IMG/VR virus record: IMGVR_UViG_3300032260_000012
Span: 1 to 34,303 of that record
Reading direction: 5' to 3' (one strand)
DNA length: 34,303 nt
From: a virus
Lineage: Duplodnaviria > Caudoviricetes
Under the pieces are notes generated by a model, which saw only the letters and a list, made by a program, of their open reading frames with translations, made no database searches and was not told where the DNA came from. The translations under genes and the position numbers were made by a program. Shown piece after piece: positions 5,130 to 30,096 of this stretch. Within the stretch, counting starts at the first letter, position 1. Each line of letters opens with the position of its first letter.

Positions 5130-5834
5130 ATGCCTACCGTCGTAATAGCGTCAAGCAAAGGTGGCCCAGGGAAAACAACGGTCGCCACATCATTAGCCTC
5201 AGAGCTTGCTAGACTGGGTGAAATCAAAAAAATGGGTGTTACCCTTATTGATTCAGATCCTAACCAGCACGCGGCTAAGTGGGCGCTTAAAGAGGGTTGC
5301 CCTAACAATATTACGCTTGTTCGGAATTCAACAGAAAAAACGATCATCGACGATATAGAAAATGCGGAAGAAAAAACGGCCCTTGTTGTGGTAGACACAG
5401 AAGGCACCGCGAGTATGACGGTTTTGAATGCCGTTAGTTTTGCTGATTTGGTTATTATACCGTGCCAAGGCGCACAAGATGACGCTGACGAAGCACTTAA
5501 AACAATTGATCTTATAATGCGCTGCCGACGAAGCTCACGACGAAACATCCCGTTTTCAATACTCTTTAACCGAACTCATCCAGCAATCGAACCAAAGGGA
5601 CTCAAGCACATTGTGAGTGAATTTAGTATATTAGGAATCGATGTTTTTAAAACTTCTATAGTAGAGCGTGAAGCGTTGAGAACTGTTCGATCTGTTGGCG
5701 GAACAGTCAATGATTTGACGCCTAAAGATGTTTCAGGTGCTGATAAAGCAGCGGCAAATTCAAACGCATTTGCACTCGAAGTAATCAGAAAATTGAATGC
5801 AATAGATTTGGGTATAGGTGTTTCTAATGACTAA
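5130..5834 (+). CDS. parA: ParA-family partition ATPase (short type Ib / VirC1-like)
   Basis: Deviant Walker A SSKGGPGKTT, LIDSDPNQ, Walker B VVVDTEG, ADLVIIP; no N-terminal HTH; AAGGAG RBS. Confidence 0.92.
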   Translation: MPTVVIASSKGGPGKTTVATSLASELARLGEIKKMGVTLIDSDPNQHAAKWALKEGCPNNITLVRNSTEKTIIDDIENAEEKTALVVVDTEGTASMTVLNAVSFADLVIIPCQGAQDDADEALKTIDLIMRCRRSSRRNIPFSILFNRTHPAIEPKGLKHIVSEFSILGIDVFKTSIVEREALRTVRSVGGTVNDLTPKDVSGADKAAANSNAFALEVIRKLNAIDLGIGVSND

Positions 5835-6183
5835 AAAACGGGCACCACTTGGAGCGGGGCTTGATTCTGATATAGGGAATTTTGCAGGCAGTGAGGGGAA
5901 AACTAAAAAACTACCTATAAACCAAAACGAAGCAAGGAATATTTCGAGAGAGGCCGGTTTTCCCAGCAGGGAAGCCCCAAAAACACGCGACCGTCGTAAC
6001 GTCTCACCATATGCGTTAAGTAAGGGATACAAGGTGCGTTCTGGTATGCATGCTTTAATCATACGTATAAGCGATGAGTTAGGCGTCAAGGATCATACAA
6101 TGCACGAACGAGCCCTTTTAGCCCTAATCGAAAAAGACTGTTCTGATGATTTAAAGGCCGAATTTGAGAGGCTGACAAAATAA
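5827..6183 (+). CDS. Small ParA partner / centromere-binding protein
   Basis: Overlaps the parA end; KRAPLG N-terminus, AGFPSRE motif and an RHH-like C-terminal region, as in plasmid stability/partitioning determinants. Confidence 0.7.
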   Translation: MTKKRAPLGAGLDSDIGNFAGSEGKTKKLPINQNEARNISREAGFPSREAPKTRDRRNVSPYALSKGYKVRSGMHALIIRISDELGVKDHTMHERALLALIEKDCSDDLKAEFERLTK

Positions 6184-8088: not shown

Positions 8089-8505
8089 TTAATATATTGT
8101 CATGCCTAGCCTATGGCTTATGGCTGGACATTCGATATCTTTTCTAAGTTCGCCACCACTTGTTGTGTATTCTTCACACACAGGACATCGGTTAAGCCTA
8201 GCAACTTTTAATCCAGTTTTAACTTTCAACAATAATGGATGATGTTTAAGGCTCTTAAATATGTCTGAATCACTTAGTTTGTCCGTATTTAACAACGGGA
8301 CACTTACCAACATATCGTATGAGCTAATAACCGCATACTGTATGCAGTGCTCTTTCTCGCGAAGTTCTCCGAGCATGGCGCGGACATTGGGTTTAATCGT
8401 TTTTTCTTCTTCGTCGGTGAGGAATATTCCGCGCATTTCCTTTCGATTTAGCTTTGCCATCTTTTCTCTAAAGAGAATGCTTTTTTTGGCTGGAGTCTGT
8501 GGCAT
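8089..8505 (-). CDS. Hypothetical protein, basic N-terminus and CxxC...C C-terminus
   Basis: First gene of leftward cluster; AGGGGA RBS. Confidence 0.6.
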   Translation of the reverse strand: MPQTPAKKSILFREKMAKLNRKEMRGIFLTDEEEKTIKPNVRAMLGELREKEHCIQYAVISSYDMLVSVPLLNTDKLSDSDIFKSLKHHPLLLKVKTGLKVARLNRCPVCEEYTTSGGELRKDIECPAISHRLGMTIY

Positions 8506-8605: not shown

Positions 8606-8625
8606 CACTGTAAAAATAAGCAGTT
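8606..8625. promoter_or_regulatory. Candidate LexA (SOS) box
   Basis: caCTGTaaaaataaGCAGtt: CTG-N10-CAG at 8608-8623, AT-rich core, one mismatch to CTGT-N8-ACAG; abuts a possible -35 TTGTAA at 8624. Confidence 0.55.
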
Positions 8626-11017: not shown

Positions 11018-11740
11018 CTATTTTATATCTCTTAGATGCGAAAGAATCACACCAGTATCATGTTCACCAACGCCAGCTAACATAAATTCCTCATGGTTCC
11101 GCCAAGCCAGCCACATGAGCTTGATTTGCTCCAACAATGATAACTCGTCTCCAAGCCTCAACGAATCCCCTTTATGAACATAACCATATTTTTTAAATGG
11201 TAAATCCGGCACCGGATCATTTGACATGCACACCCGCAGATAGTTAACGTTCCGCGCCTGTTTCATTGAAAACGTCCGATCATAATAGTCCTGGGTAAAT
11301 ACCATCGGTTGAGCGAACGTAATACAATCAATCTCTTTGAATAAATGAGCGTAAAACTCTACAAACGCATCGGCCATGGCACCGCCCCGGCTCATCCCTG
11401 TTATCAAGATCTTTTCCGGGTTCAATTCAATCAACCTATCCATGATCTGTTCTGCCATTAGTTCCATGCTGATTTTCACACCCTGGTTCACGCCCCCATC
11501 GGTCTCATGGTACTTGTAGAAATTCAACGCCCATTGGAACAAATCCTTTGTGCCTGGGAACGCCACAACAGCTCTATCCCCCTCGTGGATGATGTAACAC
11601 GCATCACCCTTTCCCTTTAACAATGGGTCGATAATCGTAAGTGAATCACCAAACAGACTTTGAATTTCGTCGGGGTCTTTGTGTAGCACCACATCGGCGT
11701 ATCGTAAGGCATCAAGAAGTTCGGGCTTAGTAAAATTCAT
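11018..11740 (-). CDS. Class 3 lipase / alpha-beta hydrolase
   Basis: VVAFPGT, nucleophile elbow ITGMSRGGA, TFAQP, NDPVPDLP, GYVH and C-terminal His (GEHD). Confidence 0.85.
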   Translation of the reverse strand: MNFTKPELLDALRYADVVLHKDPDEIQSLFGDSLTIIDPLLKGKGDACYIIHEGDRAVVAFPGTKDLFQWALNFYKYHETDGGVNQGVKISMELMAEQIMDRLIELNPEKILITGMSRGGAMADAFVEFYAHLFKEIDCITFAQPMVFTQDYYDRTFSMKQARNVNYLRVCMSNDPVPDLPFKKYGYVHKGDSLRLGDELSLLEQIKLMWLAWRNHEEFMLAGVGEHDTGVILSHLRDIK

Positions 11741-25984: not shown

Positions 25985-27983
25985 GATTTCGGGCCTCTTG
26001 TTTTGACATTCTAGCCGCCTGTTTATCTAGCGCGGATTGGACTTTCAACATGTGTTTATCCAACATCGATTGGAATTCAGACGTTAATTTCTGGCTTTCC
26101 ATCTGCTGTTTAGCCTTGATGAGGTCTTGACCGTGTTTCTGCTCTAATTTCGCTAACTGTTTTTGGAAATTAAAGGTCGCTTCTTCCATTTGAAGCTTGT
26201 TGTATTTTTGGTCAAGGTCTTTACCGGCCTTTTCCTTTTCCTGTTCAAATTTCTGACGCTCTTGTGCCAATTTTTTAGCTTCTTCACCCCCTGGTTTGGG
26301 TGGCTGCATTGACTTCAATTGGTCCTCAACGTCACGGCCAAAACGATACCGTCTAACGATGGCCATCATCATTGATTGAGCCACCTCAAAGGACATCGCC
26401 CCTTTTTCAACTAATGGGGCTACGCCGTTCATAAACTGCGCCATAGCATTCATGAACTCAGCTACGAGCTGCTTGTCTTCAGTCGCCTCAACATCTAACG
26501 TGGAATTTGTCTCGATATCGATCCGGTAACTTCTTAACAGGTCATTTTTTAAGACTTCGAGAATTTCCCCCCAGGAGGGCTTTTGGGCCACTTTCATTAA
26601 TTCAGGATCAGGTTGTGCGCCTTGCTGTTGACTAAGCGTCAATATCTTGACCGCTTTTTCCTTCTCTTCAGATGTAGGAAATGGGAGTTGTGTCATTTGC
26701 TTCCACGACTTTTCGGAAAACTTCGTCGAGGCAATTTCTAACATGATTTTCATCATATCCAGGGCGTAATACTGGACAAGCTTTTGAAGACGTTTTAGGC
26801 GCATCGTCCCCCATGCTTGTTTTATTTTCTGTGCACCGAGTGTTTCAGAGGCCGCCGATTGCCCTCTAACAATGTCAGAAATTCCCGTAATCTCATAAAT
26901 TACCTGCTTGCATGATTCTCGGGCTTGAATTAACTGTTGGGCAACGACGATCATCTTCTCGATGGGTAGGAACCAGATAGCGTTACTTAACCCGCCTTGG
27001 ACTAGAGACGCACCGTTATCGGTCGGGATTAGTGCGTTATCATCCTCTTTTAAAATGTTCGCTATCTCTTCGCCTAATTGGCCGTCATAGGCCCCTCGCG
27101 CTTTAATGGCTTCAATGACACGATTCAACCGGCGCTGAATTCTGTTCAATTCTTCCGCTTGATTCTCATACATCTTGTATGGGGCGGTAGGGACGAAATT
27201 TTTCGATTTTTTGATGAAACGAAGGGGTTCGGGCATGTTAAAGAACCCATTTAAACCCAGTGGGTCGTCCTGAACCTTCAAATAGTTGTCTTTGTATTGA
27301 GGGGTGATATATTTGACTTTACGATCTGTTTTATCCCAGATCTGGTAGATTAAAACAGTTTTCCTCTTACCCTTTTCCTCGTTTTCCGTGGTTTCCTCGT
27401 CGTCCTCCTCGCCTTCTGTAAAATTCAGCTCCTTAACGACTTTCTCACCGAAGAGTTTTATACATTCGTCTTTATCTAAATATTCTTCGTACGCGAGCCA
27501 TGGCATTTTTGACCACTTTTTAGCGTAGCCGAAGTAGACACGATTCCAAACCCTGGAATCAACACACACAGTTTCGTATTCAACTGATGGTATGTCGCTT
27601 TCTGTCACCTCGGCCTCATATTTGACCGACGTTATCCCCCGCCCTGGGACTAAGGCATCGAAAACGGCGTCTTCAATCGAATCGCTGAACTTGTCGTACT
27701 CGTCGATATCAGTATCAATCAAGTATTCAAGCATTCTTTGAGAAGCCTGAGAAACGACTTTTCCTAGAGGGTCTTCATCGTGAAAACGTCTCTGAATTAC
27801 GGGTCTAGGCAATTCGGAGAATAGCGCCGGCAACATTGTCTCAGTGTTTGAAAAGAGGATATTAAATGGCGTTTTCTTATCCGCGTCATAGATTTCTAAT
27901 ATGTCATCGCCGTCACTTCTAAAGTCCTTTTCTCGCTTTTTAGAAGATTTAATTTCCTCTAACCAAACTCTAATCTCGTCCAT
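25971..27983 (-). CDS. Portal protein
   Basis: FNILFSN, YEITGISDIVRG...ETLGAQ.IK and a long C-terminal coiled coil; likely start ATG 27983 (track start 28034). Confidence 0.88.
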   Translation of the reverse strand: MDEIRVWLEEIKSSKKREKDFRSDGDDILEIYDADKKTPFNILFSNTETMLPALFSELPRPVIQRRFHDEDPLGKVVSQASQRMLEYLIDTDIDEYDKFSDSIEDAVFDALVPGRGITSVKYEAEVTESDIPSVEYETVCVDSRVWNRVYFGYAKKWSKMPWLAYEEYLDKDECIKLFGEKVVKELNFTEGEEDDEETTENEEKGKRKTVLIYQIWDKTDRKVKYITPQYKDNYLKVQDDPLGLNGFFNMPEPLRFIKKSKNFVPTAPYKMYENQAEELNRIQRRLNRVIEAIKARGAYDGQLGEEIANILKEDDNALIPTDNGASLVQGGLSNAIWFLPIEKMIVVAQQLIQARESCKQVIYEITGISDIVRGQSAASETLGAQKIKQAWGTMRLKRLQKLVQYYALDMMKIMLEIASTKFSEKSWKQMTQLPFPTSEEKEKAVKILTLSQQQGAQPDPELMKVAQKPSWGEILEVLKNDLLRSYRIDIETNSTLDVEATEDKQLVAEFMNAMAQFMNGVAPLVEKGAMSFEVAQSMMMAIVRRYRFGRDVEDQLKSMQPPKPGGEEAKKLAQERQKFEQEKEKAGKDLDQKYNKLQMEEATFNFQKQLAKLEQKHGQDLIKAKQQMESQKLTSEFQSMLDKHMLKVQSALDKQAARMSKQEARNRANV

Positions 27984-29379
27984 ATTCTCTTTCTCTACGT
28001 TTCCTTGCAAAATGGGCTTTTTTGATCTGACCAAAATTCACCTGAGTGACATTCCCAACATGGAACTTCTGTCGTTGAGTTAAGTCGGGGGCCTGGTTTT
28101 TGCTAATTTTCCACGTTAATGAGAGATATCGAAAAGCATCCGCAGCGTGTGAGTGTTCGTCGTGGACCGTATCCCTTGAGAACACCTTTTTCATTTCGTC
28201 GTACTGTCTTCGATAGCTTTTTAAATTTTCGATTCCGTCAAAACATTTCTCTTCGTCAAACCAACATTTATGAAGGGTCGCATTACCGGCTTGATGTCCA
28301 TCTTCCTTACTCAACTCGGGAGTAATGGCGAATTTGCCGATATCTTCGTCCATGAACTGTTGGATAATAGACTTCCCACCCATCCCCAACCTTTTGGGCT
28401 TAGCGTCGTGTGGGAGCCAATGTAGACCGTACTCGTAACCCCACGTCGCAGCCTTATCTCTCAAAACTTGGGCGTATTCTGGGATCTCTTTGAAGTTGTC
28501 AGAGTGAAAATCGATGATACGTATTTCATTCGAAACGACCTGATAAAACCAAATCACTGTGGCGTCGGTTCTGCCGATATCCCACGCGGTAAAAACTGGG
28601 AAGCCCTCTTGATGTGGAACGTCACCGATTCGCCCGCCCTGAGACACTTTGGCCATCCCCTCGCCCCAAACAGAGCCCGGAAGGGCCGCTTCGAACGATG
28701 AGAAGTACTCTTGTAACCAAATAGCCTTCCCATACGCCTCACCGTGCTCATCTTGAAGCCGTTCTAACTCTCCCACTAATTGTTCTTGAGTGAATAATCC
28801 GGTCTGGTCAGATGTTAAAATCTCACCAAACCAGTCATCGTGCTTCATGGCGTATTGAACCATTTTGTAAAAATGATTCTTGCCGCGAGGAGTAGAGTTA
28901 AATACCGCCCAACCCCCGTTTTCGAGCAAAATCGGGCTTAAAAAGCCCCAAGCCGATGGGTTAGATAGCGCGTATTCAGAAAAAGTGATCCCGTAAGGGG
29001 TTGAACCGACCAGGGCATCGAAATTATCCGACCCCATTAACTGCCAAGTCGAACCGTTGGGTAATTCAATCTTCATCTCTTGAGATAACGTCTTGGACCT
29101 TATCTCAGGGGGGAAAACCTCATCTAACCGCTTCTTCCCGGTATGGGGGTTGATGGCGTCCCAAATCGCTTTACGGCATTGATTGTATTCTGGGAGTAAG
29201 TACCAGTAGTTCCCCACCACCTCCATTGAAGCGCACGCGTTATGGTGAAGCAAAACGGCATCCTTACCCGCCCTTCGATGCCAGCACGCCGCCGCCCTCT
29301 TGCCACCCTTCGCTAAATAGTCCCATAATGGTCGCTGGTAGTCTCTAGGCTTCCAGTTATACGGGAGGTTTATATTCAA
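27970..29379 (-). CDS. terL: Terminase large subunit
   Basis: PRDYQ, WHRRAGKD Walker A, FSEY Walker B, STPRG, AWDIG..D and SHAADAFRY nuclease motifs. Confidence 0.95.
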   Translation of the reverse strand: MNINLPYNWKPRDYQRPLWDYLAKGGKRAAACWHRRAGKDAVLLHHNACASMEVVGNYWYLLPEYNQCRKAIWDAINPHTGKKRLDEVFPPEIRSKTLSQEMKIELPNGSTWQLMGSDNFDALVGSTPYGITFSEYALSNPSAWGFLSPILLENGGWAVFNSTPRGKNHFYKMVQYAMKHDDWFGEILTSDQTGLFTQEQLVGELERLQDEHGEAYGKAIWLQEYFSSFEAALPGSVWGEGMAKVSQGGRIGDVPHQEGFPVFTAWDIGRTDATVIWFYQVVSNEIRIIDFHSDNFKEIPEYAQVLRDKAATWGYEYGLHWLPHDAKPKRLGMGGKSIIQQFMDEDIGKFAITPELSKEDGHQAGNATLHKCWFDEEKCFDGIENLKSYRRQYDEMKKVFSRDTVHDEHSHAADAFRYLSLTWKISKNQAPDLTQRQKFHVGNVTQVNFGQIKKAHFARKRREREYGRD

Positions 29380-29388
29380 GGGGATGTC

Positions 29389-29577
29389 CTAATTCTTAGG
29401 CTTCTGACTCGTTAAATGGTGCTGGCCGCAAAAGCAGCATTCATACGTCCTAAACTGCTTGCCGGTTTTCCTTGAAGTGTTTTTCTTGTTCCCCGTGAAA
29501 TGCCGCTGCCTGTTCAATATGAATTTGGCATCAGCTAAAGCAGCTTGACGGGTCGGGTATCCGATCTTGTTACACAT
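29389..29577 (-). CDS. Small Zn-finger hypothetical protein
   Basis: C.K..Y...A...R.YEC.FCG.HHLTS pattern. Confidence 0.65.
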   Translation of the reverse strand: MCNKIGYPTRQAALADAKFILNRQRHFTGNKKNTSRKTGKQFRTYECCFCGQHHLTSQKPKN

Positions 29578-29725
29578 CTAGAAACCTCGCTACCAGATTC
29601 AAATATCTCATTGCCGATGGGTCTGGTTTCCCTCGGCACCACCTCGATACCGTCTTCTCACTCACGCCCATGTGAGTAGCAAAATACACCTGCGTCCAGC
29701 CAATTCTTGCCAATAATTCAGTCAT
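29570..29725 (-). CDS. Small XRE-like HTH protein (51 aa)
   Basis: Not in ORF track; MTELLARIGWTQVYFATHMGVSEKTVSRWCRGKPDPSAMRYLNLVARFLDV; GGAG RBS; overlaps the next gene start. Confidence 0.75.
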   Translation of the reverse strand: MTELLARIGWTQVYFATHMGVSEKTVSRWCRGKPDPSAMRYLNLVARFLDV

Positions 29726-29881
29726 TTTCTAGGAAACTCCATACGGCGCGGACAGATAGTCCGTGTGGGGCGGACATGCTGGGTTTTTTTTGGGAAATTT
29801 TTGATGTTTTGTGTGTGGGGGGGTGTCGGCATCACCACCGCACCCCCCGCCTGCCGTCGACCCACCCCCCCCTTTTTTTTT

Positions 29882-29901
29882 CACTGTATGGATACACAGT
29901 A
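29882..29901. promoter_or_regulatory. LexA (SOS) box
   Basis: caCTGTatggatacACAGta, matches CTGT-N8-ACAG. Confidence 0.8.
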
Positions 29902-29944
29902 GTTTGCATCTAAATCCAGGTGGAATGCGGGCTACAGAGCACAC

Positions 29945-29964
29945 TACTGTATGAATACACAGTG
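29945..29964. promoter_or_regulatory. LexA (SOS) box
   Basis: taCTGTatgaatacACAGtg, matches CTGT-N8-ACAG. Confidence 0.8.
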
Positions 29965-29975
29965 GAATGCCCGCT

Positions 29976-30003
29976 ATTTAACATAATATATGTTATGCGC
30001 AAC
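29976..30003 (-). other. dif-like XerC/XerD recombination site
   Basis: Minus strand GTTGCGCATAA-CATATA-TTATGTTAAAT versus E. coli dif GGTGCGCATAA-TGTATA-TTATGTTAAAT: XerD arm 11/11, XerC arm 10/11. Confidence 0.92.
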
Positions 30004-30010
30004 TAGATGC

Positions 30011-30023
30011 TAAGCTATTGATA
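30011..30023 (-). promoter_or_regulatory. IHF consensus site
   Basis: Minus strand TATCAA-TAGC-TTA = WATCAA-N4-TTR. Confidence 0.65.
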
Positions 30024-30083
30024 TGTAAGGAGTTTACCAAAGACCACTGAGTGTGATCAGGTACGTTGTCGAGCTTATCGCTC

Positions 30084-30096
30084 TAAGTCATTGATT
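30084..30096 (-). promoter_or_regulatory. IHF consensus site
   Basis: Minus strand AATCAA-TGAC-TTA = WATCAA-N4-TTR. Confidence 0.65.

Follow-up and report, generated by a model that had tools for sequence, protein, structure and literature searches.

A dif-like XerC/XerD site beside IHF and LexA motifs at the packaging module of a podophage: a candidate for self-recombination by the host Xer system

Introduction

What use would a tailed phage have for a dif-like site, recognisable by the XerC and XerD recombinases of its host, next to its terminase genes, and do the LexA and IHF motifs on either side of that site take part? The question is raised by a single 34,303-bp virus contig (hereafter, the window), which holds most of a podophage. 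The initial annotation of this DNA proposed that LexA and IHF formed an unusual accessory set for host XerCD, that the phage would use the site for dimer resolution or for integration at the host dif, and that SOS induction could switch the reaction. In the accessible portions of the sources cited here, the accessory factors of Xer recombination are PepA, ArgR, ArcA, FtsK, XafT and Endo III, and the use that phages make of the Xer system is integration (PMC9765430, PMC12407071, PMC5357621, PMC3442271, PMC11630473, 10.1101/2021.09.09.459576, 10.1101/633727). A literature search, with subscription papers and supplementary dif lists largely outside its scope, returned no paper that treats IHF or LexA as a partner of Xer and none on dif sites at tailed-phage ends, and the terms IHF and LexA are absent from the main text of an Xer review.

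The site and its genomic setting

The features of the window that the argument requires are the following:

5130..5834, plus strand: ParA partition ATPase, flanked by the same two genes as the integrase of the sister genome G001
5818..6183, plus strand: likely ribbon-helix-helix partition partner, type Ib (Atlas feature score 0.95, stability/partitioning cluster; a lead)
27970..29379, minus strand: terL, large terminase (annotation)
29570..29725, minus strand: Cro-like HTH gene, 51 aa, whose homologues follow the G box in relatives without LexA boxes
29733..29776, no strand: 22-bp direct repeat directly upstream of the HTH gene (repeat comparison)
29784..29810, minus strand: set of three A tracts in approximate phase, following the G box and predicted to bend the DNA (read from the sequence)
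29843..29872, minus strand: G-rich box, conserved after terS across the clade (coordinates read from the sequence)
29884-29899, no strand: LexA box 2, separated from box 1 by 63 bp (6 turns) and from the G run by 11 bp
29947-29962, no strand: LexA box 1, 13 bp from the XerD arm
29976-30003, minus strand: dif-like XerC/XerD core, 28 bp (motif scan; position conserved in relatives)
29976-29986, minus strand: XerD arm, perfect match
29987-29992, minus strand: phage-specific centre, differing from that of E. coli at its first two positions
29993-30003, minus strand: XerC arm, 1 mismatch to the E. coli arm
30011-30023, minus strand: proximal IHF consensus site, separated from the XerC arm by 7 bp
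30084-30096, minus strand: distal IHF consensus site, at the same place in the sisters L036 and L104
30097..30537, minus strand: terS, small terminase of the P22 gp3 family (Pfam GP3_package, E=3e-16, above the cut-off; PHROG terS)

A motif scan of the window, using consensus motifs for dif, LexA and IHF that were in part those of the initial annotation, recovered all five motifs (the dif-like core, two LexA boxes and two IHF matches). The earlier description of a 28-bp site with a perfect XerD arm, a 10/11 XerC arm and an altered centre was borne out, as was that of two IHF sites on the XerC side, the nearer one 7 bp away; the two LexA boxes are indeed on the XerD side, although the nearer one lies at 13 bp and not at about 12 bp. 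The site is intergenic, with 11-bp XerC and XerD arms around a 6-bp centre, and all of the motifs occupy the gap between terS, whose stop codon abuts the distal IHF site, and the HTH gene that precedes terL. Rfam returned no match.

Matches to the XerD arm with at most one mismatch are found in the window at the dif-like site alone (0.04 perfect matches expected), and both arms are identical to those of the chromosomal dif of 1 of 401 genomes. The two LexA boxes are the only strict ones in the 34,303 bases, where 0.5 would be expected, and the chance of two falling in a given 200 bp is about 4e-6. Each is off the symmetric consensus at 4 of 20 positions, and, as a motif, the pair agrees beyond chance with the 16-bp gammaproteobacterial SOS box consensus and its AT-rich spacer, so that the boxes are probably real operators. 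Four IHF consensus matches occur in the window (1.8 expected), two of them beside the dif-like site and 73 bp (about 7 turns) apart; the chance of two in 200 bp is about 6e-5.

The gene content of the phage includes portal, capsid, terminase, an O-like initiator, Erf, a RecE-like nuclease and ParA. ParA, its ribbon-helix-helix-like partner and the O-like initiator would suit an extrachromosomal replicon, and the phage likely persists as a plasmid. The claim that the window contains no integrase holds across the 57 ORFs scanned; the same TerL and ParA are also found on a 40,892-bp contig, and about 6.6 kb of the phage lies outside the window. The host is taken to be a gammaproteobacterium from the types of arm and box, the presence of locus L184 in a gammaproteobacterial bin and the one genome with identical arms. 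Erf and the RecE-like nuclease could circularise the genome without Xer. A sediment metagenome, which may be the source of this DNA, is the only run found to contain it; no RNA data set was listed for it. The stretch is present there, free of joints, in one contig (contigs show presence, not absence), and five short contigs of the same run match the dif core with two differences.

Several other features of the window were recorded. The 22-bp direct repeat is likely the operator of the HTH gene itself, and repeats resembling it are visible by eye in L047. Four overlapping KOPS-like matches in 5-bp steps (1110-1132) lie inside the O-like initiator gene and are probably a short tandem repeat at the origin. 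A lipase class 3 gene (11018-11740) stands beside the endolysin gene.

Position of the site in related phages

Searches with TerL gave 153 loci, which were reduced to 125 by dereplication. All 14 dif-like matches in these 125 loci fall within 2 kb upstream of terL, a region that makes up 14% of the sequence, in a count that comes from related and hence not independent phages, under post hoc criteria, and that includes one poor match (L054). Much of the clade has the G-rich box after terS, whether dif is present or absent. Where the box could be located, with five anchors set by hand, the start of the dif-like site precedes it by 46-194 bp, whichever way the site is oriented, and no site lies in the 500 bp after it. 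The G box likely marks the packaging start or the genome end.

On a quick tree (no bootstrap) the dif site is scattered and often missing, and, as many relatives do without it, the site is dispensable. Among relatives, conservation is stronger in the XerD arm than in the XerC arm. In L141, L145, L085, L088, L129 and L130, the same place is taken by dif variants whose XerD arm ends differently, which suggests retuning to different host groups. Additionally, the contigs of L082, L128, L130, L184 and L201 stop at most about 45 bp from dif, and these stops may reflect either the ends of genomes or breaks in the assembly. Six records have repeats of 75-144 bp at their ends, which were set aside, as they look like assembly overlaps. 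A search with the single-sequence locus yielded 1 distant locus only, the stretches examined from cultured TerL relatives at 35-47% contained neither a G box nor an XerD-arm match, and genome G046 has matching arms but gave no TerL match.

Of the nearest sisters, L036 carries dif and two IHF sites, with the 73-bp IHF spacing preserved; its TerL is identical to a protein of a 40,028-bp contig, a size that is also listed for the closest ParA, presumably on the same contig. In L104 (genome G001), an integrase occupies the place that parA has in the window, with the same two neighbouring genes, both IHF sites are kept and only a decayed remnant of the XerC arm is present (about 5880-5995), 7 bp from the proximal IHF site; the dif site of this integrase-bearing sister is apparently being lost. 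An integrase is also present in 3 of 7 near-complete dif-bearing records (G005, G010 and G013), so dif does not track a plasmid lifestyle. The ParA of the window had no match in 15 fetched records, and a search of 32 records with PF01656, a profile that is probably insensitive for this ParA type, was likewise negative.

Cultured phages also carry such sites, which are unannotated in the records of SYP, rV5, Hena1, ZF40 and Seurat. They lie inside the terminal repeats of Hena1 (L467; 519 bp) and of vB_PpS_SYP (351 bp), and directly before terL in the temperate phage ZF40 (L470). In Seurat (L469), a gap of 3 bp separates a perfect IHF site from the XerD arm of the dif-like site. L471 (CP057073.1, 137.6 kb), filed as an E. 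coli plasmid, matches the dif region of rV5 and is probably an rV5-like phage.

IHF beside viral dif sites

The proposal that IHF is an accessory of the reaction gained support from spacing statistics, in which IHF appears as a positioned neighbour of the arm. These statistics come from 120 viral dif loci drawn from about 740 stretches and grouped into 71 flank clusters with one fixed representative each, some of which may still be kin. A perfect IHF match within 25 bp was present in 16 of the 53 representatives with non-host centres and in 0 of the 15 with host centres, while each of six farther bins held 0-2 of about 50, and none of 500 permuted motifs reached 16. Chromosomal dif sites had no perfect IHF match within 25 bp (0/31). 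The gap was 12-14 bp at 13 of 19 sites and 22-25 bp at 4 of 19. A scan that permitted gaps of 4-16 bp found 51 loci in 9 clusters, with 12 bp in 32 loci, 11 bp in 7 and 7 bp in 5, and no locus at 9, 10 or 13-16 bp; 5 of the 9 clusters have terminase genes no more than 3 kb away. Such tight gaps indicate that IHF is placed relative to the Xer core and support, at the level of motifs, its role as an Xer partner at phage dif sites.

This support is qualified by the persistence of IHF sites in some dif-less relatives (see below) and by looser spacing nearer the window. Within its clade, a hand count gave IHF gaps of 2-24 bp in 14 of 19 records with at most one mismatch (7 perfect), and the 7-bp gap of the window is half a turn off the common 12 bp. 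The dif sites of seven cultured Vequintavirinae, again to the contrary, have no IHF site within 25 bp. Two observations concern other sequences: L339, L396, L416, L441 and L450 have a GC-rich 16-bp palindrome, separated by 12 or 22 bp from the XerC arm and in IHF phase, which is possibly the site of another accessory protein, and, on small inovirus-like contigs (L004-L034), IHF-like motifs are visible by eye at several dif sites, with gaps of about 9-17 bp to the XerC arm.

A model of self-recombination at the genome ends

The best explanation of these results, which we hold with about even confidence, is that host XerC and XerD recombine the site with its own copies, aided by IHF, and thereby join genome ends and resolve dimers. 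Host-type arms, a private centre, the place by the putative packaging start and the sites of Hena1, SYP and ZF40 all fit self-recombination. The part of the original proposal that has host XerCD act on the DNA of the phage itself is thus favoured by the clade-wide place of the site, the non-host centres and the partition pair.

The reaction would run as follows. XerC and XerD of the host would recombine the dif-like site only with another copy of itself, and bending by IHF beside the arm would help to shape the synapse. The G box and the A tracts would mark the packaging start or genome end, so that dif would fall in the terminal redundancy, a placement observed directly in Hena1 and SYP, whose sites lie inside the terminal repeats. 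After injection, recombination would join the repeated ends, and genome dimers would be cut back to monomers; the changed centre would block complete exchange with the host dif. The LexA pair would be an SOS-released block on the end module, not needed for Xer recombination. This role for LexA is the most likely one under the self-recombination model, and it is assigned from the absence of the boxes in relatives, not from a positive result. The model gives no account of how XerD is activated away from FtsK.

The role of the LexA boxes

Conservation in relatives was the test that the initial annotation had set for its accessory proteins, and its outcome was divided: the position of dif and the IHF motif recur, whereas the LexA pair does not. 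A LexA box within 100 bp of dif was found in 0 of 17 dif-bearing relatives, including a sister that is 83% identical, which leaves LexA a weak candidate for a defining accessory. When aligned with L036 and L104, the pair is an insertion, with another palindrome at about the same place in L036. It would thus be a lineage-specific local addition between dif and the G box.

Two explanations would nonetheless give LexA a part in recombination. According to the first, which we think rather improbable, an IHF-assisted Xer module is widespread at tailed-phage ends, and LexA has been wired into it here, and convergently in SYP and rV5, so that the host repressor would directly gate recombination, which keeps a quiet prophage monomeric and is switched at induction. 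According to the second, unlikely in our estimation, the resolution complex is built jointly by LexA, bound next to the XerD arm, and IHF, bound next to the XerC arm, and the SOS cleavage of LexA switches the reaction, sparing concatemers. The geometry is suggestive for such a complex, as the 13 bp between box 1 and the XerD arm falls in the 12-14 bp slot that is commonest for IHF elsewhere, the boxes are 6 turns apart as the IHF sites are about 7, and the palindrome of L036 occupies about the same place. Cultured phages offer further examples: the 351-bp repeat of Pseudomonas phage SYP (L468, 134-182) contains a strict LexA box, 5 bp away from the XerC arm, that, with its repeat copy, is the only one in about 5 kb of ends, and rV5 (L482) has a weaker LexA-type box 1 bp from the arm.

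The wider searches speak against a joint complex, as does the lack of the box in the 17 relatives. The 120 unbiased viral dif loci gave one strict LexA match, in an inovirus-type hairpin. In two scans of the collection, strict LexA boxes on the XerD side of dif were absent from tailed phages, and the XerC side yielded only rV5-like boxes resembling LexA sites; eight other cultured phages examined had no LexA-type box beside dif. One unselected strict match in roughly 110 sites is a weak excess over the approximately 0.1 that we estimate to be expected. Furthermore, G014, which has no dif, carries a LexA-type box before its G box.

Two lines of inquiry were abandoned. A scan of viral contigs for a LexA box plus an XerD arm gave 33 matches, all of them inovirus-like hairpins or sequences without an XerC arm, and not relatives; strict LexA boxes upstream of terL in relatives (5/12, p=0.016) appear to be mostly in coding sequence, and only that of G014 was counted. 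A third, weaker LexA-like box of the window (8608-8623; 6 of 20 positions off consensus) lies about 100 bp upstream of an unnamed leftward ORF (8089-8505), a candidate SOS-controlled antirepressor gene in view of the 143-aa repressor-like protein of the phage (1988-2419), which has no peptidase match.

Packaging, transcription and FtsK

Since the site lies between terS and the G box, a setting that the initial annotation had missed, packaging and transcription are further processes in which IHF and LexA could act. In the corresponding explanation, to which we give a low probability, both proteins act at the packaging start or at a late promoter, and dif is an FtsK-activated resolver of plasmid-prophage dimers at cell division. 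IHF acts at lambda cos and at P1 pac. In keeping with such a role, IHF sites persist in relatives that lack dif: 5 of 14 of these (L104 included) have a perfect site in the 250 bp that precede the G box, so that IHF may serve packaging there. LexA box 2 is only 11 bp from the G run, and, as the repressor-like protein lacks a peptidase match, induction may depend on genes under LexA control. The integrase-bearing sister, moreover, contrasts with the two dif-bearing ones that have ParA.

By contrast, the sharp IHF spacing is measured from the dif arm, which also weakens the simpler idea that IHF merely accompanies the G box. The dif site is found in lytic phages as well, and in records with neither ParA nor integrase (G002, G004, G011 and G015). 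The scan of the window yielded no convincing promoter overlapping the LexA pair; the best match nearby (9/12) uses the AT-rich centre of dif, and promoter counts equal chance. Finally, the seven KOPS matches of the window, of uninformative orientation, all lie at least 19 kb from the site.

Centres and the question of integration

Integration at the host dif, the other use that had been suggested for the site, would make the latter an attP and the phage an IMEX similar to VGJphi or LME-1, which we now consider very unlikely. Some features do fit: no integrase was found among the 57 ORFs, the XerD-side half of the centre matches that of the commonest chromosomal centre, one genome in 401 has both arms identical, and tailed IMEXs exist, as LME-1 demonstrates in the accessible parts of its description (PMC9765430, PMC12407071).

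The centre, however, is unlike chromosomal ones. Of 146 sites listed for Gammaproteobacteria genomes (four rows from unpublished genomes being left out), 143 have centres that start with T, and the centre of the window is found in none, so that a centre able to exchange with the host dif was not recognised, a provisional result. Strand exchange obeys a homology rule, and the phage centre differs on its XerC side, where the first exchange of the VGJ type occurs. For VGJ-type integration, the available portion of the source has XerC make the first exchange (PMC3442271). Additionally, insertion would split terS from terL, the att of LME-1 is identical to its host dif and far from terL, and the phage has a partition pair. 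The junctions at host dif that this hypothesis predicts were looked for in related loci and in one run, and none was seen: in none of the loci of relatives is dif flanked by terL to one side and by chromosomal DNA to the other, and the stretch in the metagenome run is free of joints, with contigs showing presence only.

Across the clade, centres vary between relatives and are non-host. In clusters 0 and 1 of the gap scan (L288-L338), the arms are constant around 8 and 11 different central hexamers, respectively, which suggests diversifying self-specific Xer sites.

The remaining explanation, that the site docks XerC and XerD without recombining and recruits a decatenase or unloads SMC-type complexes from the phage end, recalls the binding of XerD to dif-like sites that unloads SMC in Bacillus and Staphylococcus, as given in the accessible part of the source (10.1101/2021.09.09.459576), and suits the better conservation of the XerD arm, but it is highly improbable, as conservation extends to both arms and the 6-bp centre, and the centres avoid the host sequence, which would matter only for strand exchange.

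Relation to known systems

The self-recombination model has precedents, each of which agrees with the present site in part. In phage P1, loxP and Cre, near pac, circularise the plasmid prophage and resolve its dimers. P1 is alike in being a plasmid prophage with a site for a tyrosine recombinase close to where packaging starts, but it encodes its own recombinase, while none was found in the window, whose site is of the host type. The cultured phages Hena1, SYP, rV5 and ZF40 share the non-host centre and the position at the genome end or terminase, with a LexA-type box in SYP and, weakly, in rV5; they differ in that they mostly have no adjacent IHF site and that the box is single and on the XerC side. 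Gokushoviruses, which are tailless, reportedly carry dif mimics that host XerCD use for integration.

The following comparisons draw on the accessible portions of the sources. The VGJphi, TLCphi and CTXphi phages of Vibrio also bear dif mimics for host XerCD, although they are tailless, their sites serve integration, and TLC needs an identical centre and XafT (10.1101/2021.09.09.459576). LME-1 of Legionella is a short-tailed phage that uses the host Xer system and whose TerL is 31% identical, but it relies on a single recombinase, XerL, its att is identical to the host dif, its integration is proven and its site is outside terS-terL (PMC9765430, PMC12407071). The plasmid sites cer (ColE1) and psi (pSC101) resemble that of the phage in their XerCD core, non-chromosomal centre and neighbouring sites for host proteins (PMC5357621, PMC3442271). 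These proteins are PepA plus ArgR or ArcA, over about 180 bp, whereas the phage site has IHF and LexA motifs, with the IHF motifs on the XerC side, and sits at the packaging module, unlike cer and psi.

Implications

A 250-bp fragment in E. coli suffices to test all of these ideas. If direct LexA control of a recombination site were true, it would be a new kind of SOS output. If IHF acts at a fixed spacing from the core, it would be a new accessory factor of XerCD. If host recombinases act on the site as proposed, the Xer system would have a new job, the host-catalysed joining and resolution of tailed-phage genomes, lytic ones included, and this would provide one answer to how some terminally repeated genomes circularise.
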